Source of the DNA: Escherichia phage PSD2002
Sequence record: OK335775.1
Length of the DNA: 64,000 nucleotides
Direction: 5' to 3' (one strand)
Under the pieces are notes generated by a model, which worked only from the letters and a program-made list of their open reading frames with translations, was not told where the DNA came from and ran no database searches. The position numbers were made by a program, and so were the translations under genes. The stretch's first letter is position 1, and each line of letters begins with the position of its first letter. Shown here piece after piece: positions 14,332 to 61,525 of this stretch.

Positions 14332-15080
14332 TTCTTAAGGTCCTTTTCAACCAAAGACAAAGCAATACCGCGTTCGATTGGAATCATCTGCATAATGCTT
14401 TCTAATGAATAATTGTTCTTTACCAGTAAATGGTTTATTTGGTAAAATAAAAATATCTCATCCGGGTTGACTATAAGCTTAAACACCTCTAAAATATCGG
14501 TATACGTAATTGTTCTACGATTACAGCATCCATATTTTAGTTCAAAATTAATAGGGCTAGTTTGTTTGACTATATCCTCTAAAGTGGATAAGTCTATAGC
14601 ATCTATTACGGCTAATTGGTCTTCTTCAGAAAGGTCAGTCCAATTATATTTCCCGTTTTCATCTTCCACGGTTTGGAGGGTGTTCAGAATCAATTCGGAT
14701 TTGTCTTGATATTCTATTTCCGGAAATTTGAATGTTAGCTTCAAGCCGGCCACTTCAATTGTGGGATTATCTAACTTGGTCTGTTTCAAATTGAATAAAA
14801 CTTGTCTATCCTTTTCACACTTACTACAAGTGTATCGGATAGGAATTTTGGTCTTGCCGAGTGATGACGTATAAAGTTCAATGAACATATATGGGCGCCA
14901 TGACATAGGATATTCACCGAAGTATTCTTCCAGTAACTCATCTAAAATTTGTTTTTGCTCTTCAGGTGATTTATTATTCATGTCATTTCGAATCAAAATA
15001 AAATCACGATAATCAGCTACTGTAAAAGGTTTAAATCGGTGGACTCCATCAGGCATTTCACAACGTACTATATTAGCCAT
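14328..15080 (-). CDS. 51: baseplate hub assembly catalyst gp51
   Basis: Track ORF 14328..15131 trimmed to ATG at 15080 ([12 protein letters not shown]); about 250 aa (T4 gp51 249 aa); late promoter immediately upstream. Confidence 0.7.
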
Positions 15081-15100
15081 AGGGTGTCCTCTTATTGATG

Positions 15101-15112
15101 TATTTATAAATA
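15101..15112. promoter_or_regulatory. bidirectional late promoter: palindrome TATTTATAAATA gives TATAAATA on both strands
   Basis: TATAAATA at 15105-15112 on + (gp26 ATG 15131) and on the reverse strand at 15101-15108 (gp51 ATG 15080). Confidence 0.6.
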
Positions 15113-15130
15113 AGCTTAAAGGAGAAGACA

Positions 15131-15754
15131 ATGAATTATACTTTTGACGTAAAAATTAAAAACAAAACCATAAAATGCAGAGCATTTACCCTCAGAGAGT
15201 ATAAGGACTTGCTCCAAGCTAAATTAGAAGGCAGAATAGAGTCCTTTATCAATGAACTCATTTCGAATTGCACAGATGCTCGTGATTTAAACAAGCAAGA
15301 ATCTGAGCTCCTGGTGATAAACCTGTGGGCCCATTCATTAGCTGAAGTGAATATAGAACGTGAGTGGAGTTGTAGTTGTGGCCGCTCACAGGTTGTCCCT
15401 ATGACACTAACTCGAGCAACATTGGGTAAAGAGCCGGATGTTATTAAAGACTTTGGCAACTTTAAAATTGTTTTCAGATATCCTAAACTCTTTGAAGATA
15501 AAAATAGAGCTATGATGGTCGCAGGGTGTATCGATTATATTTTAACTTCTGCAGGCGAAAAGCTTCTTCTTTCCGATTTAAGCGGTGCGGAACTTGATGA
15601 CCTTTATTCTGTGATAACAGAAAAAGATATAAAAGAAGTTTATGATGCACTAGTCGCCCCTAAGCCTATTTTGGCTATACCTATTTCTTGTGAATGTGGT
15701 GAACACACCGTCCACGTTATTGAGGGACTTAAAGAGTTCTTTAAGGTGATGTAA
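15131..15754 (+). CDS. 26: baseplate hub subunit gp26
   Basis: 207 aa (T4 gp26 208 aa); RBS AAAGGAGAA; late promoter; synteny with gp25. Confidence 0.75.
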   Translation: MNYTFDVKIKNKTIKCRAFTLREYKDLLQAKLEGRIESFINELISNCTDARDLNKQESELLVINLWAHSLAEVNIEREWSCSCGRSQVVPMTLTRATLGKEPDVIKDFGNFKIVFRYPKLFEDKNRAMMVAGCIDYILTSAGEKLLLSDLSGAELDDLYSVITEKDIKEVYDALVAPKPILAIPISCECGEHTVHVIEGLKEFFKVM

Positions 15755-17912: not shown

Positions 17913-19405
17913 ATTTGGACCTCTTTCATGACATAATTAAATTTCTCGTCTGCGTACCGTTGAATACGTTCTAATCCATGTTTTAATGCATAATTTAGGT
18001 GAATGTATTTCTTTTTAGAATCTTTGGATTTAGGTTTCACCCCCATGTCATCGATGATGTCAAAAACTTGGGCTGTTGTTTTAGATTTGTGTTTACGTAA
18101 AACCCTTCCTATGGTTTGCAGTACCGTTACCTTGGATTTTACTGGATGGGCAAATACAACGTGGTGAAGGTTCTTAACGGAAATACCTGTAGAGAACACA
18201 CCATAACTTGCCACAACAATAATACCCTTACCATTTTCCGCCATTACCTTCAGAGCATTACGCGTTTCGGTATTAACTTCACCCGATACGTAATAAACTT
18301 CTTTATGTTGCTCTTTAACCATTTCAAAAAGAGTTTTACCGTGTTCGATGTTTTTAAACATCAGGAATACGTTCTCTTCTTTCTTAGCGAGTTTAACAGC
18401 TAAATTAGCAACCCATTTATTACGACGAGTAGCCTTAGTAATGACCTTGATTTCTGATTGGTAATCTTTACCTTTCATTTTAACCGTGAATTCGTCTGGG
18501 TATCGAAGGAAAATACTGTTGATTTTAAGGTCAGTAACCTGTCCTTCTTCCATTAATTGGGAGGTGGATACTGGCTTAAACACATCACCAAACAAGCCCA
18601 TATATTGCATTAAATTAGCTTTACCATCTTTTAAAGAACCCGACAAACCGAATTTAAACATACAGTTGGTTAGGCCTTCGATGATAGTAGAAATAGATTT
18701 ACCTGTAGCCAAATGGCATTCGTCGTTCATAAACATACCGAACTGAGCAAACCATTCTTTAGGTTGCTTGATAGCGGTTTGATAAGTTGAAACATAAATC
18801 ATTGCATCGGAATCACGAGCAGTACCTGAACGAATACCAAGCATTGCGGCTTTAGGGAACAGACGATAATCGATGAAGTCATTAATCATCTGGTCGACAA
18901 GTGCAGTAGTAGGAACTAATATAAGGATTTTACCTTCATAGTTCTCAACGTAATATCGACTCAGGAGCGCCTGGATTAATGATTTACCTGCGGATGTAGG
19001 TAAATTCAGAATTGCACGACGTTTTGTCAGGCCGTTGTATACGGCTTCATTCTGATACCAATGAGGCTCAATCTTGGTAGACCCTGAATAAATTTCTTGA
19101 GAAGCCACCCATGAGTCAAAATCTTCACGAGAAATATCTTCCTGTTCAAGAATACGTGGGTCAATCCACAGAGAGTATTCAAATTGTTCAGCGAACTTTT
19201 TAATTTGAGGAACCAATCCATATGGCAGTTTACGGTTATAATCCAGAAGGCGAATACGTCCGTCCCATTGACCATAACGAAATTTAGGGTTGAATTTATA
19301 TCCATCAGCTTCAAAGCTAAAATAGTCTCTGAGTTCGTAGAATGTAGATTCATCGCATTCAATACGGACATGACTAAAATTATCAAAATGTACTTGAATT
19401 TGCAT
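17909..19405 (-). CDS. uvsW: UvsW helicase
   Basis: 498 aa; Walker A (PTSAGKS), DECH box; N-terminus resembles T4 UvsW. Confidence 0.9.
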   Translation of the reverse strand: MQIQVHFDNFSHVRIECDESTFYELRDYFSFEADGYKFNPKFRYGQWDGRIRLLDYNRKLPYGLVPQIKKFAEQFEYSLWIDPRILEQEDISREDFDSWVASQEIYSGSTKIEPHWYQNEAVYNGLTKRRAILNLPTSAGKSLIQALLSRYYVENYEGKILILVPTTALVDQMINDFIDYRLFPKAAMLGIRSGTARDSDAMIYVSTYQTAIKQPKEWFAQFGMFMNDECHLATGKSISTIIEGLTNCMFKFGLSGSLKDGKANLMQYMGLFGDVFKPVSTSQLMEEGQVTDLKINSIFLRYPDEFTVKMKGKDYQSEIKVITKATRRNKWVANLAVKLAKKEENVFLMFKNIEHGKTLFEMVKEQHKEVYYVSGEVNTETRNALKVMAENGKGIIVVASYGVFSTGISVKNLHHVVFAHPVKSKVTVLQTIGRVLRKHKSKTTAQVFDIIDDMGVKPKSKDSKKKYIHLNYALKHGLERIQRYADEKFNYVMKEVQI

Positions 19406-19419
19406 AAGTAATTCTCAGT

Positions 19420-19441
19420 TATAAATATAGTTATATTTATA
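19420..19441. promoter_or_regulatory. divergent late promoters (TATAAATA on + for inh/hoc; TATAAATA on the reverse strand for uvsW)
   Basis: TATAAATA at 19420-19427 (+) and complement of TATTTATA at 19434-19441. Confidence 0.55.
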
Positions 19442-19460
19442 CACCAACAAGAGACTAATT

Positions 19461-20132
19461 ATGGATACTCAATATATTGAAGAGCTTCGTGCACTCGAAG
19501 ATAAAAAAGAAGCTAAAGCTAAGTTAATCGAATACGGCGAACAGTTCGGTTTAAAACTTAAGAAAACCCGTTCGTTTGATAATTTGATTATCGATATCTC
19601 TGAAGGCCTTAAAGCCTTGGCTGACGAACCACTCCCAGAAACCGAAGGGTTGTCCATTTCTGATTTGATTGATGCTGCCGACGAACTTACAGGTGCTAAC
19701 GAATTTGTTGATGGTGCTGAACCAGCTAAAGAAGAAGCCACCCTGTTGTTCGATGCCCCTGAGGCTGCAGTAGAAGTCGTTGAGGTAGCCGAACTTCCTA
19801 AGGTAGAGATTATCGAAGAGGATGTTCCATTTGACGAAGAGAAATTCAAAGGGGCTATAGCCAAGGTTGTTGAATCTGAAAAACCTGTATTCTCTTTACC
19901 TGAAAACTTCAGTCCTAATCTTTTGCTTATCGGTAAGAACCCAGGTTATTGCACCGTTCCTTGGTGGATTTACCAATGGATTTCTGAGACTCCGGATTGG
20001 AAAGAACGTCCAACTGCTTTCCAACATCCTTCTGCCCACCAAACATTATTTAGTCTGATTTATTACATTAATCGTAATGGTTCAGTATTAGTACGTGAAA
20101 CTCGTAACTCATCTTTTGTCACTTTAAAATAA
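19461..20132 (+). CDS. inh: Inh-like protein (inhibitor of prohead protease), by position
   Basis: 223 aa (T4 Inh about 226 aa); located between uvsW and hoc as in T4; no diagnostic motif recognised. Confidence 0.5.
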   Translation: MDTQYIEELRALEDKKEAKAKLIEYGEQFGLKLKKTRSFDNLIIDISEGLKALADEPLPETEGLSISDLIDAADELTGANEFVDGAEPAKEEATLLFDAPEAAVEVVEVAELPKVEIIEEDVPFDEEKFKGAIAKVVESEKPVFSLPENFSPNLLLIGKNPGYCTVPWWIYQWISETPDWKERPTAFQHPSAHQTLFSLIYYINRNGSVLVRETRNSSFVTLK

Positions 20133-51575: not shown

Positions 51576-53639
51576 TTAATTCCTAGTAGGAGATTCTAAA
51601 CAAGGTATGCAAATGGAAAGGGATGGAAATGCAATCGTTAAACCGAATATTCCCAGCATCTTATTAATCCATTGTACCACCTTACTTAAGGATAATGTTG
51701 ATATTTGGTTATACATTGATTTGCACAAGTCTTTCATTGACCTGGAACCATCAGTAAATTCGTGATATAAAGATTTTGCTTTAGTTACTGAGTTCTCGTA
51801 TATAACCATGATATCATCTACAGTAGCTCCGAGCATACCGAGAAGTTCTTCCATTTGAGCCACAATAGGAAGTTTTTTGAATTCTTCTAAAGCCATATCT
51901 AATACATCAGAAACGGAGGTTTGACTTTCGGTAATAGAGTTCTTAATCTGATTATATTTATTCTTTAAAAGTTCGAGTGCAGCTTCAGCTTGTGCTAATG
52001 CGGCTTCCTTCTGAGCAGTTAGCTCGTCTGTAACTTTTTCGTACATTCCTGAAAGATATTGTTTAAATTCAATAGCTTGTTTTTGTACTTCTTGCTTTTT
52101 GAGCTTAATCTCATTCCACAGATTGAGTGCCTGGGTTTTAAGAGCCTCAATCATTGCATAAGCTTCGTCTATTTTCTGGTCTACCTTTTCCATAACCATT
52201 TGATAAACATCTGATGCTGTGAATCCTGGAAAGTTACCGCTCATTATCATGTCCAGTGGTTTAACTTGCTTCATCATTTCCTTGACCGCAGTAATAACGC
52301 TCCAAACTGGGTTCGGAACTATAGGAGGCATACTCCATATTTGAGCGAGGTCTACACACAGTTTTGATAATGCAACACCAGCCATAAGCAATTGAGACCA
52401 GGCCCAGTCATACAAGTCTGTAATTGCATCAATAAGGTCACGCGAATACATCTTGACGCGTTCAACCGAATAATCGTATGCAGACCCAATGGCAGAATAA
52501 ATCGATTGGATGGTTTCTTCTAAATTAAAGTTTTTCCATGCTTCTTTTAATTTCTGTACACCATCACCTGAAGTGCAGAGGTCTTCTAGGTCAATAGTCA
52601 TGCCCATAATAGTAATCGAGGGTAAAAAGCTTTTAAGTAAGTCCCACCCACCGCCAACAATATCCAAGACCTGTGATATGGCATCTTTAAATGCAAGAAA
52701 AGCCATTTGCTGAACATATTGACACATAGCAACAGCTGAGTTGCCTAGCTCTTCCATTGCGACCGATAGCTTACTATAACCAGAATCGAAGAATTTTTCC
52801 CAATCGGTTCCACCAGATGATGGCCATCCAGGGAGCATATCCCAATATAATTTGAATGAATTCCTAGATGTATTCCATGAAGCCATAATCGCATTGGTCA
52901 ATCCGTTGTAAGGGAATTCCGCTGTAAAAGGAACACAGCTTATTGCCCTGGCTCGCCCGGTTATTTCTGGCGGTAAAGACCCGATGGATACCGGTCCCGG
53001 AATCGGAGTTCCTGGGATACTCATATCAACATCTAGATTTAATACCAGTCCAACATAAGTACAAGGTTTTGTCTCATAGTACTTCAAATAAGCCCTGCGG
53101 GAGTCACCAAGGCCGTTAAAGTTGACATACATATGATAATCAGCCGTAACTGCAATCATCGTCCTGGGGTCCATTCTGGGGCCTTGTGATGTCCATACAC
53201 CGCCACAGTTTTCGATGCGATACATATCATATTCAATAGATGTTTTATACAATACAGATTTTGATAAATCAGCGCCGTACCAATCATTACCGGGCAAAAG
53301 AGTTGCACCAATCGATTCTACATAATTTTCTAAATCCAATTGCGTAATAAAGAATATTCCGAGTTTAGCACACCAGATACCTTGACTTGTTCCATCTTCC
53401 GGTGGGGGAGGTGCAGGAAAAGTTTCGGACTTATTACCAAATGGATTTTGTGTGTATAAATGTGTAGCTAGTGGAATAATCTCGGTATCCCATTCAACGC
53501 CATTCCCAGGTTGAATAAAAGCACCTGTTGGGTTATATAATTCCCATTTAACCCGGCGATATTCACCGGGTCCTACTGCGTCATCACAGGGACTTGTTAC
53601 AGTCCCTACCACTTCATCAACTTTATCGTAGTAATTCAT
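51576..53639 (-). CDS. hypothetical protein of unknown family (687 aa from ATG; 695 aa if GTG start) between gp5 and gp6
   Basis: Long uninterrupted ORF tightly packed in the baseplate operon; C-terminal coiled-coil and hydrophobic tail; no motif I recognise; T4 has only small 5.x ORFs here. Confidence 0.6.
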   Translation of the reverse strand: MNYYDKVDEVVGTVTSPCDDAVGPGEYRRVKWELYNPTGAFIQPGNGVEWDTEIIPLATHLYTQNPFGNKSETFPAPPPPEDGTSQGIWCAKLGIFFITQLDLENYVESIGATLLPGNDWYGADLSKSVLYKTSIEYDMYRIENCGGVWTSQGPRMDPRTMIAVTADYHMYVNFNGLGDSRRAYLKYYETKPCTYVGLVLNLDVDMSIPGTPIPGPVSIGSLPPEITGRARAISCVPFTAEFPYNGLTNAIMASWNTSRNSFKLYWDMLPGWPSSGGTDWEKFFDSGYSKLSVAMEELGNSAVAMCQYVQQMAFLAFKDAISQVLDIVGGGWDLLKSFLPSITIMGMTIDLEDLCTSGDGVQKLKEAWKNFNLEETIQSIYSAIGSAYDYSVERVKMYSRDLIDAITDLYDWAWSQLLMAGVALSKLCVDLAQIWSMPPIVPNPVWSVITAVKEMMKQVKPLDMIMSGNFPGFTASDVYQMVMEKVDQKIDEAYAMIEALKTQALNLWNEIKLKKQEVQKQAIEFKQYLSGMYEKVTDELTAQKEAALAQAEAALELLKNKYNQIKNSITESQTSVSDVLDMALEEFKKLPIVAQMEELLGMLGATVDDIMVIYENSVTKAKSLYHEFTDGSRSMKDLCKSMYNQISTLSLSKVVQWINKMLGIFGLTIAFPSLSICIPCLESPTRN

Positions 53640-53640
53640 A

Positions 53641-55428
53641 TTAACCGACCTGTACGTTGCCACCAGATACTTTAGCTAATGAACCGCCATCCATATGCAC
53701 AGTATTTGATGCGTTTAAATTAATGTTCGTCGCTGCAAAATTTAAATCTTGTTCGACATTTACATCCATATTTTGAGCATTGATTGTGGCCTTTTGTTTA
53801 ACGCTTATATCTGCATTCTGGTTGACATTAACTGTTGTATCTTTTTCAACCGTAATATATGCTTCTTGTTCAACAGTTATATCAGCAGTACCCATAATAA
53901 CTATTTTAACATTTCCTTTAACAAGCAGAGTTCCATTACCTTCTACAGTTTTGGTTTCATTCCCTCGAATATGAATGCTTTCAGACCCATCAGTTTGACG
54001 GCGCACGTTTGCCATATTATAATAGGTTTCATCGCCACCAACGTTGACTTTATTATTACCACCAACATAAGTATTTGAATCGCCTTGGGTCATATAATAA
54101 CCATCGGCTACCGTCTTAGAAGTTTTACGTCCATCAGGAGCAACTTCTTCATAACTACCGGTAGGATGGATTAAACGGTATCGTTCTTGCCCTGGGGTAT
54201 TATCGAATTCTTGGATATGCCCGCCTTCAGTTTGCATGGTTTGGACATATGGATATTCGCCTTTATAACTAGAATCAGGTTCTTTAAAAAGAATCCTTGT
54301 GTCTTCTGGAGTCCACGGGTCGGCAGGGTCTGAATTTGTAGGGGCCACAAAGGTTTGAATCATTCTATACGAACGGCCATTAAATGACCTTTCTTTAGGG
54401 GCCATAATACCATATGATTCCATGTTACCTGTGAGGATAATCATTGACACCCTTGATGCGCGACCTTTAGTTTGGTTAAACCATACCGAATTACGGGCTT
54501 CTTCAAATGCCTTTTTATAATCGCCTATTAACATTGCACTAAGCATTCCACGGAATTTAGCAAGCCCACCTAATCCCATTTGGAAAGCCATGTTTTCAAG
54601 AGCCATTTGTCTCGAACGGTTTTCTTTATTATAAACAGGACCTACAACACTATGCAGGCCTATATCATTTTGGACTTTTTTAAGGTCGTCTTGGAATAAT
54701 TTAGAAACCTCGTCCATTGATATTGCACCAGGGTTACCTTTAACTTCTCGTCCTACCTGATTAGATAATATTTTGTTTATTTGATTCATATCTCTAATAG
54801 GTTGTGGCGTAATAAGGTGACCTATACCTATAGTAGGATAACCTTCGGTATCCCAATATACCTTCAGTCTAAGCCCTTCATCACGATGAAGCATGTTTTC
54901 TATTGTGAAATTAGGATTATCATCAGGCTTGACTTGGCTCAAATCCAAACCGTCTGGGTTAATACCTACATCGGTGTTTGCATCTTGTATTACGTTGGAA
55001 GTGGCATCATATCCAACTTCACCACCTCGGTTTAAAGCCGCGGCATCATTACCTAAATAAAGTGGGTATTGACCTGTCGGGTCGCTAAAACCTTCATTAG
55101 GATTAGCCTTTTGTCTTGAAGCGGAACCGTATGTACCAAGGACCAGTCCGTTTAATTTCCACTTATCAAGAAAATGCCCATAAACCTGTGTACCAGGAAC
55201 CATACCGGTCATGGCGGTTTGAATACCTGAAACAGAGGCTGAAGATGTAGGCATTAATACCGACATCCATGGTAAATCTTCTGTACGAAGGCCTTTTACT
55301 GGACCTTGCACTTTTTCGTATGGATGCATGCCCCATACGCGCACGCGTACTCGGCCTTGTTGGAGTGGGTCCATTCGGTCTTCAACTACGCCGACGAACC
55401 AACTGACATTATCAGACATGTTAATCAT
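53641..55428 (-). CDS. 5: baseplate central spike / cell-puncturing lysozyme gp5
   Basis: 595 aa; N-terminal OB domain (NVSWFVGVVED..DP...GRVRVRV.G.HP) resembling T4 gp5; lysozyme domain (TIENMLHRDEGLRLKVYWDTEGYPTIGIGHL); C-terminal beta-helix repeats. Confidence 0.9.
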   Translation of the reverse strand: MINMSDNVSWFVGVVEDRMDPLQQGRVRVRVWGMHPYEKVQGPVKGLRTEDLPWMSVLMPTSSASVSGIQTAMTGMVPGTQVYGHFLDKWKLNGLVLGTYGSASRQKANPNEGFSDPTGQYPLYLGNDAAALNRGGEVGYDATSNVIQDANTDVGINPDGLDLSQVKPDDNPNFTIENMLHRDEGLRLKVYWDTEGYPTIGIGHLITPQPIRDMNQINKILSNQVGREVKGNPGAISMDEVSKLFQDDLKKVQNDIGLHSVVGPVYNKENRSRQMALENMAFQMGLGGLAKFRGMLSAMLIGDYKKAFEEARNSVWFNQTKGRASRVSMIILTGNMESYGIMAPKERSFNGRSYRMIQTFVAPTNSDPADPWTPEDTRILFKEPDSSYKGEYPYVQTMQTEGGHIQEFDNTPGQERYRLIHPTGSYEEVAPDGRKTSKTVADGYYMTQGDSNTYVGGNNKVNVGGDETYYNMANVRRQTDGSESIHIRGNETKTVEGNGTLLVKGNVKIVIMGTADITVEQEAYITVEKDTTVNVNQNADISVKQKATINAQNMDVNVEQDLNFAATNINLNASNTVHMDGGSLAKVSGGNVQVG

Positions 55429-56030
55429 TAGAGGGCTTTCTCCATTTCTCTAATTAAAGCGGAAACAAAGGACTCGATGTCATTAGGGTCTATAATCTTT
55501 ATTTCGCGCTTATATTCATTTTTACGAATGGCGTCCTCGTAAATATCTACTGCAGCCAAAGGACCTTCATATTGAGGATAACGTTTTTCTGTATCACCTT
55601 TATCGTACCAAGTATAAGGATTTTCCGGAGTATTTACTAGATTCCAGAATTTCTCACCCTTTTCATTGACATGATAAAGGACTTGGTTTCCGCCTGCAGT
55701 AGCATAACGTTGAATAGCTGCTTGATACGCAGATTCTTGGCCTGTAATCCAGCCGTAATAAGGGTCATATACGTTATTACACATCAATAAAACCCAATAT
55801 AATTGCACGTTACCATAAAGTTGATGGGCTAATTCTTCTGGACGAGGGGCCCCACTGATATAATATGTTTTAAGTGTATAATTTTTAGCCACTTTATCAA
55901 AATATTCTTTATAGTTTCTAAATATATCAGTCATCGGTACGCTCAGTACATCGGCATCAGTTAATGAGCCGGAATCTGGCTTGACTGTTTTTGATTCGTA
56001 ATTTATAGGATCGAAAAATGAGAAGAGCAT
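55428..56030 (-). CDS. 53: baseplate wedge gp53
   Basis: 200 aa (T4 gp53 196 aa); synteny; late promoter upstream. Confidence 0.7.
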   Translation of the reverse strand: MLFSFFDPINYESKTVKPDSGSLTDADVLSVPMTDIFRNYKEYFDKVAKNYTLKTYYISGAPRPEELAHQLYGNVQLYWVLLMCNNVYDPYYGWITGQESAYQAAIQRYATAGGNQVLYHVNEKGEKFWNLVNTPENPYTWYDKGDTEKRYPQYEGPLAAVDIYEDAIRKNEYKREIKIIDPNDIESFVSALIREMEKAL

Positions 56031-56075
56031 AGTGCCTCCGAGTATAAATAATATTAATATTTATAAGGAGGCACT
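56031..56075. promoter_or_regulatory. symmetric divergent late promoter region: TATAAATA on each strand flanked by 9-bp inverted repeat AGTGCCTCC/GGAGGCACT
   Basis: TATAAATA at 56043-56050 (+, gp4) and complement of 56058-56065 (gp53); the inverted repeat supplies GGAGG RBS to both genes. Confidence 0.6.
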
Positions 56076-56525
56076 ATGGCCTACTCAGGGAAATTTAAAC
56101 CTACAAACTTACAAAAATATAAAGGTGATTGGAAGAAAATCCAATATCGTTCCTCTTGGGAAGCATGGCTTATGCGTTGGCTTGACAACCATCCTAATGT
56201 CGTCCAGTGGAACTCGGAAGAGGTTGTGATTCCATATTTTAGTAACGCTGATGGAAAGAAACGTCGGTATTTTATGGACTTCTGGGTGAAGTTCGACAAT
56301 GGTCAACAATTCTTTTTCGAAGTCAAACCTTTTAAAGAGACCCATCCTCCAGCGGCGCCTGCTAAAATGACTACAGCTGCTAAAAAGAGATATATCAACG
56401 AACATTATACATGGAGTGTAAATAAAGATAAATGGAAAGCTGCTAAAGCTACAGCAGATAAAATGGGAATTAATTTCAGATTGATTACCGAAAACTCACT
56501 GAAAAAATTAGGATGGAAAGGATGA
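56076..56525 (+). CDS. 4: head completion protein gp4
   Basis: 149 aa; sequence (MAYSGK...[16 protein letters not shown]...GQ.FF.E.KP.KET.PP) resembles T4 gp4. Confidence 0.85.
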
Positions 56526-57349
56526 GTATATTTTCTTACATCAACGAGGCTACTGAAACTACAAAAGGTTCCAAGCCTACTCGTTCAGAACAACAATGGA
56601 TAACTTTAGGCGTTGAATATGCCAACGCTAAGGCTAAAGGTGTTTCGGCTAAGAAATTCGCTGAAGATAAAGGCATCAAGTATTCTAGCTTTACATCTGC
56701 GATGTCTCGATACTCGAGTCGAATTAAAACTGCTGTACAGGTTGAAAAACTTCAGAAGAAACCTGGCAATAAATTAACCAAAGCCGAACGTCAATTAATT
56801 TTGGTGAATAGTTTTAGAAAGAGTATTCGCGATAAGATTGCTAACGAAGGCGCTGCCGTAAACAATAAATCAGCTAAATGGTTTACAGAAACATTAAAGA
56901 AAGGAATTCGTGGACACCAGGTATCTAAACCGTCTCCTGGTAAGCTTTATGCTTATATCTATGATGCCAAACATAAGGATACCCTACCATACTGGGACAA
57001 ATATCCTTTAATAATTTATCTTGGGTTAGGTAAGCATAATTTAATGTACGGACTGAACTTACACTATATTCCACCTAAAGCACGTCAGCAATTTCTGGAA
57101 GAATTGCTGAAGCAATACGCGAGTACGCCTACCATTACGAACTCGACTAAATTAAAAATCGATTGGAGTAAGGTAAAAGGATTCGCTGGCGCCGACGTGA
57201 TGATTAAGGCTTATATCCCTGGAAATATTAAGGGACCTTTAGTAGAGATAAAACCGTCTGATTGGGCTAATGTCGTAATGATGCCGCTCCAACAGTTCAT
57301 GTCTAAAGGCAAGCGTTATTCAGCTCAGAAAGTATGGAAGAATTCATAA
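56522..57349 (+). CDS. 2: DNA end protector gp2
   Basis: Track ORF 56513..57349 trimmed to ATG overlapping gp4 TGA (ATGA) with GGAAAGG RBS; 275 aa (T4 gp2 274 aa). Confidence 0.7.
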
Positions 57350-57431: not shown

Positions 57432-58022
57432 ATGAACGGTTTATTTAACCAAACTAACACTACTAACTTTATCTTAGAGGTTAGTGACGCAGGAATGACG
57501 CAGGCATTCAAATTGAACGTACAAGATGTAACACTACCGGGTATCCATATTCCGGTCTCAGACGTCCCGGGATCGACCCAGGGCATACATCGTGCTAAGC
57601 TGCCAGGTTCTACGGTAGAATTCGATCCATTGATTGTGAACTTTCTTGTAGACCGTGAATTGAAATCATGGCTTGATGTTTATAAGTGGATGTTGTCATT
57701 AAACAACTATGTAACCCATGATTCAGAAGCCTGGCACCCTAAAGGACAACCGGAAGCTATCACCCTCCACATCCTTGATAACAACAAACAAAAAATCGTA
57801 ATGAGCATTCATTACTACGGTGGTTGGCCATCTGACCTCTCGGAAATCCAGTACTCTTATAAAGAGGATTCTGACCCGGCGATAATCGCCACAGCAACAT
57901 TCAACTTCAAATCGTTTGCTGTAGAAATAGATGGTACAATAGTTACAGGTCGTCCACAAATTGATTCGTATGCCGAACAACGAGTGGCTCGTATGTCTAT
58001 GCATCCATCTATGAGAAAATAA
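57432..58022 (+). CDS. 3: tail completion / sheath stabilizer gp3
   Basis: 196 aa; assignment by position between genes 2 and 1 only. Confidence 0.6.
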   Translation: MNGLFNQTNTTNFILEVSDAGMTQAFKLNVQDVTLPGIHIPVSDVPGSTQGIHRAKLPGSTVEFDPLIVNFLVDRELKSWLDVYKWMLSLNNYVTHDSEAWHPKGQPEAITLHILDNNKQKIVMSIHYYGGWPSDLSEIQYSYKEDSDPAIIATATFNFKSFAVEIDGTIVTGRPQIDSYAEQRVARMSMHPSMRK

Positions 58023-58772
58023 TGAAACTAATATCAATTGTAGGAATCAAACGTAGCGGTAAGGATACCGTTGCTAACTATGTAATCGAAAATATGGATT
58101 CGGTAAAATTTCAGCTCGCAGGTCCTATTAAAAAGTATCTGGCTGAAGCCTATGAATACATCTCTGATGACCCTGTATTCGACCGTAGTTACATGCCTAA
58201 ACTAGATTTTAACTGTTTTGAAGGTATCGGTTACGACCGTGAAGAAATCCTTCCTTTAAAACCAGATGATGTGATTGATATCTTTGAACATGCTATTGTC
58301 AAACTGAATAATATCCTTCCTATTCCAGGAATTGATACCGTAACTACGTATCATTATGGTCCTACCATTCAATATCTGTCTGAAGAAACAAAAGACCAAC
58401 TGTTTGAAGTAATAAATAAAAATAACAATTGGTCAGTACGTCGTCTCATGCAGACCCTTGGGACTGATATTATTGTTAACCAATTTGATAAGATGTATTG
58501 GGTTAAGTTGTTCGCTTTAGACTATTTTGATAAAATATACTCTGATGCGAAATACTATGTCGTACCTGATGTTCGTCAAACACACGAAATTGATTCGCTC
58601 AGAGCGATGGGTGCTACGATTATTCATGTAGTTCGCGCTGAAACCGGTCAAGTACAAGACTCGCACATCACTGAAGCGGGTCTACCAATTTTACCCGGTG
58701 ACGTTGTTATTGAAAATAACGGCACTCTTTCTGAACTATACACCACTATTGATAAATTATTAGGAAATAAAA

Positions 58773-61351: not shown

Positions 61352-61525
61352 ACCAAATTTGACCAGACTATTCCTAAAAATAGTAATATGCTTTAAGAGT
61401 AATGTGTTATTATTACTCTATCATTAATACCCTCTATTACCAAAGGTTCTTCCCTCAAAGAACCTTTCATAATAGACAAGGTCTATTAATCAAACTTACT
61501 TTACTTAATTTTATTTGAGGTGTTT

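Follow-up and report, generated by a model that had tools for sequence, protein, structure and literature searches.

A bidirectional T4-type late control region predicted between genes 53 and 4 of Escherichia phage PSD2002

The short gap between genes 53 and 4 of Escherichia phage PSD2002 is most probably a T4-type late control region, compact and bidirectional, and the perfection of its mirror-symmetric arms a lineage-specific trait. It lies in a stretch of 64,000 nucleotides of record OK335775.1 that was analysed as a whole and is called the window here. A bidirectional late promoter region at this place is already known, as the module is the orthologue of a region predicted previously in T4-like phages. 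The module marks the point, beside the oriE homologue, at which the late structural region switches strands, a fact of little weight beyond annotation. It holds the only consensus late promoter upstream of genes 4-2-3 and the first consensus box for the gene 53-5 operon, for which the next box on the same strand lies 17.6 kb downstream.

Layout of the gene 53/gene 4 gap and its late promoters

Megablast assigns the window to the genus Dhakavirus; its identity to Escherichia phage QL01 is 99.9% in the 1.2 kb that were compared. A first reading made from the sequence alone (the sequence-only reading) had named the flanking genes as gp53 and gp4, and both are indeed orthologues of these, by the QL01 annotation and by tblastn; with gene 4, the latter matched 2549 phage records annotated as head completion or head closure. 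Gene 53 is the first gene of a leftward late operon (53, 5, and onward). The gene order of T4 is found on both sides, with gp5 beyond gp53, and gp2, gp3, gp1 and gp57A beyond gp4. QL01 is also annotated with gp55, gp45 and the clamp loader gp44/62. The AT skew changes sign at the module, from -0.06 to +0.16 in adjacent 1-kb bins (55000-57000), and this coincides with the switch of coding strand.

The module fills the 51-bp gap between the two genes. Read directly on the + strand, it runs from CAT (56028-30, the start of gene 53 on the - strand) through AGTGCCTCC (56031-39), GAG, the box TATAAATA, the spacer ATATTAA, the opposed box TATTTATA, a single A and GGAGGCACT (56067-75) to ATG (56076-78, the start of gene 4). 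The features are listed in Table 1. The 9-bp inverted repeat proposed at 56031-56039 and 56067-56075 was confirmed by this direct reading and is in fact longer: with the start codons counted, it is perfect over 12 bp, and it continues over 21 nt at 86% complementarity. The two opposed boxes of the sequence-only reading are present where it had placed them, and its claim that both genes have the same GGAGG ribosome-binding site and spacing also holds, as genes 53 and 4 share the identical initiation region GGAGG-CACT-ATG. The pattern GGAGG-N4-ATG has three matches in the window, of which two are those of the module; with so few matches, it was rejected as a general ribosome-site motif of the phage.

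Table 1. Features of the gene 53/gene 4 module, its surroundings and two further divergent modules in the window (SD, Shine-Dalgarno sequence)
Feature	Position	Strand	Remarks
Third divergent late-promoter module	15078-15133		Overlapping boxes form the palindrome TATTTATAAATA at 15101-15112; back-to-back
Second divergent late-promoter module, face-to-face	19405-19463		TATAAATA-tagtta-TATTTATA, 6-bp spacer; between a 498-aa gene (-) and a 223-aa gene (+)
Sigma-70-type promoter-like site TTGACG-17-TATAAT	53995-54023	+	11/12 matches; antisense inside gene 5, at the T4 oriE position
Gene 53, baseplate wedge subunit, 200 aa	55428-56030	-	ORF; QL01 counterpart annotated as baseplate wedge subunit
Left arm of the 12-bp perfect inverted repeat	56028-56039		CATAGTGCCTCC; read on the - strand GGAGGCACTATG, i.e., SD (CCTCC at 56035-39), 4-nt spacer and gene 53 start codon
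Late-promoter box TATAAATA, rightward, for gene 4 (then 2, 3)	56043-56050	+	Exact consensus, conserved; predicted start A56056
All-A/T spacer ATATTAA, 7 bp	56051-56057		From the sequence; both predicted starts inside; N7 also in T4 and RB69
Late-promoter box TATAAATA (TATTTATA on +), leftward, for gene 53	56058-56065	-	Predicted start 56052 (A on the - strand)
Translation initiation region of gene 4	56064-56078	+	TAAGGAGG (8-nt SD), CACT spacer, ATG
Right arm of the 12-bp inverted repeat	56067-56078		Within the gene 4 initiation region
Gene 4, head completion / head closure protein, 149 aa	56076-56525	+	ORF; tblastn

The late promoters of T4 consist of an 8-bp box at -13 to -6 (PMC1524935); they need no -35 element and have an A/T-rich segment directly downstream of the box (PMC2988020). 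Both boxes of the module match the T4 consensus exactly, and the spacer that follows each of them is 100% A/T. Moreover, the boxes lie 5' of the gp4 and gp53 orthologues, a position conserved in T4, RB69 and the sampled enterobacterial relatives (L002-L018, described below). In the 64-kb window, TATAAATA occurs 18 times against 7.0 +/- 2.5 expected, a count reached in none of 100 shuffles, and 16 of the 18 copies are followed, on their own strand and within 9-50 nt, by the ATG of a long ORF. The divergent late promoters put forward by the sequence-only reading are therefore supported by the exact consensus, by conservation in T4, RB69 and other relatives, and by an earlier prediction in RB69.

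Start sites were computed from the -13 to -6 rule and are predicted positions. They fall inside the module, at A56056 on the + strand and at 56052 (an A on the - strand), 4 bp apart and diverging, so that there would be no overlap between the transcripts; relative to the transcript of its partner, each box occupies about +3 to +10. The open complex of a T4 late promoter unwinds -12 to +2 (PMC7892883), which places the predicted bubbles at 56044-57 and 56051-64, with the 7-bp spacer as their overlap. As both bubbles would need the shared spacer, the geometry suggests that the two promoters would exclude each other on one DNA molecule.

In the arrangement that we propose, two gp55-dependent late promoters would face each other across the 7-bp A/T spacer. 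From the + box, transcription would begin at about A56056 and run through genes 4, 2 and 3; from the - box, it would begin at about A56052 and run through gene 53, gene 5 and those beyond. Both open complexes would need the spacer melted and would occupy the same DNA, with one promoter occupied at a time on each molecule. Each leader is predicted to be unstructured and 20-22 nt long, first an A/U-rich transcript of the other promoter's box and then a strong SD (GGAGG) at 4 nt from the AUG; in the gene 4 leader the SD would comprise the 8 nt UAAGGAGG. The module would then offer a clean natural case of two gp55 promoters with mutually exclusive open complexes, and for this reason would be suited to studies of promoter competition, or of how the orientation of the sliding clamp picks the direction of transcription.

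Conservation of the layout and origin of the symmetric arms

The layout is shared with T4 and RB69. The T4 gap reads CAT-gggcc-CTCC-tgtt-TATAAATA-tattatc-TATTTATA-AGGAG-aatcca-ATG (genome 77338-77384), and RB69 has the same box-N7-box core followed by AGGAGG; it differs in a TTG start and in 14 additional nt towards gene 53. As in PSD2002, the flanking genes are orthologous, two exact TATAAATA boxes are set across 7 bp with an SD on each side, the gap is short (47-61 bp), and gene 4 has the early and gene 53 the late polarity. Beyond the boxes, however, the arms of T4 and RB69 are symmetric only at the SD core (CTCCT/AGGAG), whereas those of PSD2002 are identical for 12 nt including spacer and start codon. 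Two late promoters predicted in RB69, Pl:80613 (+) and Pl:80684 (-), appear in Additional File 5 of Nolan et al. 2006 (PMC1524935), and both are assigned to the RB69 gene 4/53 gap (80627-80687). A literature search with phrases on divergent or overlapping late promoters gave no match, the GenBank records of T4 carry no promoter features, and one supplement of a T4 dRNA-seq preprint holds no coordinates in 7734x-7738x.

Further relatives were taken from IMG/VR loci found with gp4; the enterobacterial sample that keeps genes 53 and 4 adjacent comprises loci L002-L018. The module is present at every sampled locus with adjacent genes 53 and 4. The boxes are separated by N7 in the dhakaviruses and two other groups, by N10 in the VR20/Enterobacter group and by N11 in L018. 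Many distant environmental T4-like contigs also have a divergent gene upstream of gp4, with TATAAATA or CTAAATA facing TATTTAT(A) across longer spacers. Since the layout is common to T4, RB69, the sampled relatives and the distant contigs, the arrangement is old.

The perfect arms are confined to a narrow group. With a query of 87 nt centred on this region, 14 phage records (the QL01/WG01 group) match at 100% identity and 37 others at 95-99%. These 37 records and the sampled JS98-type sequences have a 1-nt insertion and/or a mismatch in an arm. For example, the JS98-type dhakaviruses read CATAGGGCCTCC ... GGAGGCAACTATG, and other variants have A or T at the variable position of the left arm and CGACT on the right. 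The arms differ by single-sided substitutions or by a 1-nt indel, which always fall at one position some 4-5 nt ahead of each start codon. Accordingly, a covariation test of the arms among the relatives revealed no compensatory change, only these single-sided changes and indels at the least constrained position. The stem is predicted at -24.6 kcal/mol in the window and is weaker elsewhere: -19 to -21 for the other dhakaviruses, -16.7 and -14.5 for the VR20/Enterobacter group, -13.0 for T4 and -8.3 for L016. The VR20 group has arms that are symmetric at 11 of 12 positions with a sequence different from that of the window, which may point to a weak pull toward symmetry, or toward identical initiation regions.

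Measured against random sequence, the module is more symmetric than chance would give. In the 64-kb window, inverted repeats that are perfect over 12 bp and have a loop of up to 40 nt occur twice, against a mean of 0.24 in first-order Markov simulations, 17% of which contain at least one. Among the distinct sites listed from 25,576 windows of 60 nt, the module ranks third in stability on the - strand and fifth on the + strand. Most of this symmetry is forced by the head-to-head promoters, SDs and start codons. Indeed, with opposed boxes, opposed SDs and opposed start codons, 16 of the 20 stem pairs follow automatically. In a constrained null, in which promoters, SDs and start codons were fixed and the remaining positions randomised, the hairpin reached a mean of -15.7 +/- 2.8 kcal/mol against -24.6 observed, and the arrangement of promoters and SDs accounts for about two-thirds of the stability. 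As a counterpoint, the observed stability was reached in 0.7% of these trials and 4/4 complementary spacer bases in 0.5%; the perfect extension of the arms is thus a 0.5-0.7% event per single genome even under the constrained null.

As far as the compared sequences indicate, perfect mirror symmetry is a small variation restricted to one lineage, and nothing in them points to selection or function. The mirror-symmetric module of the sequence-only reading is real in this phage, and its symmetry does not stand as a conserved design feature, as the arms are broken in relatives and asymmetric in T4 and RB69. The 4 bp that perfect the arms (AGTG/CACT) would have arisen recently in the QL01/WG01 lineage, probably as a neutral change, and would be no functional element.

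The same comparison bears on a site acting at the DNA level, either an operator for a dimeric protein (e.g., a DsbA-like one) or a cruciform, that would modulate both promoters. In each half of the near-perfect palindrome, 20 of 22 positions are paired, and according to a review of T4 late transcription DsbA binds A/T-rich sites that overlap two late promoters (PMC2988020). Against this, the affinity of DsbA is reported to be low and without effect on transcription in vitro (PMC2988020), and the conserved parts of the module are fully explained by promoter and SD functions. Outside the SD, the bases of the arms differ between close relatives and show no symmetry in T4 and RB69; for this reason we regard an operator or cruciform as very unlikely.

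The hairpin and access of ribosomes to gene 4

The sequence-only reading had also suggested that the arms could pair in either transcript and occlude the ribosome-binding site. This does not agree with the predicted starts, which lie between the boxes, so that each late mRNA would carry one arm only and could not occlude its own site. The folding of both 5' UTRs, which that reading had proposed as a check, gave unstructured leaders: RNAs from the predicted starts fold no better than their shuffles (z -0.55 and -0.93). Pairing in trans between the two late mRNAs was also rejected, because the two leaders carry the same arm sequence and are not complementary to each other.

The hairpin is possible only in read-through RNA that enters the module from outside, according to the predicted folds and starts. 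A 57-nt RNA that crosses the whole module folds at -26 to -27 kcal/mol (z about -7), and its stem includes the SD and AUG of gene 4.

A strong stem on both strands, at the switch point of coding strand and AT skew, could belong to a bidirectional terminator that shields each operon from antisense read-through. On both strands the stem lacks a U-tract behind it, and an intrinsic bidirectional terminator was rejected on this ground; the terminator scan did not flag the module, and ribosomes must use SDs and start codons that lie inside the stem. Such a function is extremely unlikely.

Read-through RNA could also matter for the timing of gene 4 expression. In T4 genes e, soc, 49 and I-TevI, long early transcripts hide the ribosome site and an internal late promoter frees the gene (PMC3014915); for these gates, both the upstream early or middle transcripts and the repression of translation were demonstrated (Uzan and Miller 2010, PMC3014915). 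As in the T4 gates, the late promoter of the module is in the 5' half of a stem-loop and the SD/AUG in its 3' half, and late transcripts without the 5' arm are common to both. In silico, the SD/AUG of gene 4 is in a 12-bp stem of the longer transcript, and the predicted late start at 56056 lies 3' of the left arm. Unlike in the T4 gates, most of the stem here is a by-product of the second divergent promoter and its SD, without covariation support, and the helix is not kept in relatives beyond the forced elements, the stem weakening from -24.6 to -8.

We consider it unlikely that the module acts as such a temporal translation gate, in which an early RNA from about 54030 would fold a 20-bp hairpin and gene 4 would be translated only from the late transcript. 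Several observations are consistent with it. The RNA spanning the module is stable (-26 kcal/mol, z about -7) and holds the gene 4 SD/AUG in its stem, the late promoter lies in the loop and 5' half as for gene e (PMC3014915), and the extra arm pairing is an event of about 0.5% under the constrained null. The early and middle transcripts of T4 all share one polarity (PMC2988020); gene 4 has the early polarity, and the early genes of QL01 are on the strand equivalent to the + strand of the window.

A possible source of early RNA is the sigma-70-like site at 53995-54023. It is the best such site on the + strand and aligns with the T4 oriE promoter (TTGATG-17-(TG)TATAAT, 1396 nt into gene 5), so that, judging from the alignment, it probably represents the early promoter of oriE, conserved in this dhakavirus. 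An early-mode promoter is reported to be required by T4 oriE (PMC3016281), and in the literature the T4 origin is placed near a point of transcriptional divergence. No convincing intrinsic terminator was found between this site and the module, either here or in T4.

One terminator-like hairpin, AGCCGGAATCTGGCT then GACTGTTTTTG at 55965-55983 (+), was found on the antisense strand inside the first part of gene 53, some 50 nt ahead of the module. Its stem and its U-run are set 5 nt apart, pair 5/11 is lost in two of the sampled relatives (L005 and L007), and the hairpin is absent outside Dhakavirus. With a displaced U-run and a non-conserved stem, it was judged probably non-functional and was rejected as a block to read-through.

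Between the sigma-70-like site and the module there is also a 45-aa ORF (55269-55406, +), antisense to the start of gene 5, whose place and length are those of T4 repEB. The two are 40% identical (pairwise E 7e-9), a similarity that the conservation of gene 5 alone could explain. At the site corresponding to repEA (54187-54333), no similar ORF was detected (no alignment).

The points against the gate are that about two-thirds of the stability comes with the way promoters and SDs are set, that the relatives have no compensatory changes (the stem is at -19 in the JS98 types, -13 in T4 and -8 in L016), that about 2 kb of untranslated antisense RNA exposed to Rho would have to be read through, and that the other face-to-face module of the window is without such a hairpin. 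It thus seems doubtful that an oriE-type early RNA running antisense through genes 5 and 53 has its gene 4 SD/AUG locked by the stem of the perfect arms and the 8-bp boxes. If it did, the gates of the T4 gene e type would number five; the new one would be built from the mirror of the neighbour's initiation region, would be tightened in one lineage (the QL01-type dhakaviruses) and would add an example to a known T4 mechanism. The preferred reading remains that of two opposed late promoters with arms whose perfection is probably neutral.

An Rfam search over 55700-56400 returned only a sub-threshold match of the hairpin to a miRNA precursor (20.8 bits against a gathering threshold of 60), which we took as chance.

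Other divergent late modules and features of the window

Two further divergent late-promoter modules were found in the window (Table 1). The face-to-face module at 19405-19463 has weak SDs, asymmetric arms and no unusual hairpin (z -1.4). The module at 15078-15133 lies between a - strand gene starting at 15080 and a 207-aa + strand gene starting at 15131, also with no unusual hairpin (z +0.3); its pair of boxes, TATTTATAAATA, is a conventional back-to-back one, in contrast to the face-to-face pair at genes 53 and 4. Overlapping late promoters on opposite strands are also found in RB69, RB49, RB43 and Aeh1 in the table of Nolan et al. 2006 (PMC1524935), with pairs at 118620/118672 in RB69, 144977/145030 in RB49 and 122785/122835 in Aeh1. 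These pairs, in the window and in the other genomes, resemble the gene 53/4 module in having boxes on opposite strands within about 0-15 bp, between divergent late genes; they differ from it in their weaker or asymmetric SDs and in having no notable hairpin (z -1.4 and +0.3 for the two in the window).

The stability scan also detected other structures. Two adjacent G+C-rich hairpins at 53540-53610 (-), together at -31.9 kcal/mol (z -5.0), form the most stable 60-nt window of the scan; they lie just 3' of the gene 5 stop, in the start of the next ORF (695 aa). A hairpin at 61420-61490 (-) reaches -29.2 kcal/mol (z -7.4), with an 11-bp core stem, AAAGGUUCUUC/GAAGAACCUUU, and flanking pairing, and may be a terminator beyond gene 57A.

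Rightward of the module, genes 3 and 1 overlap by ATGA at 58019-58025, where T4 has a 49-bp gap. Gene 1 encodes a dNMP kinase, an early function in T4; given the overlap, an early promoter for gene 1 would have to sit inside or upstream of the late gene 3. Finally, the gene 53/4 junction is split by an extra ORF in the orientation of gene 4 in some relatives (loci L019, L020, L025 and L033). A homing endonuclease is annotated beside gene 4 in phage records (e.g., UPEC07 and Providencia PSTRCR_121), so the surroundings of gene 4 may be an insertion hot spot.
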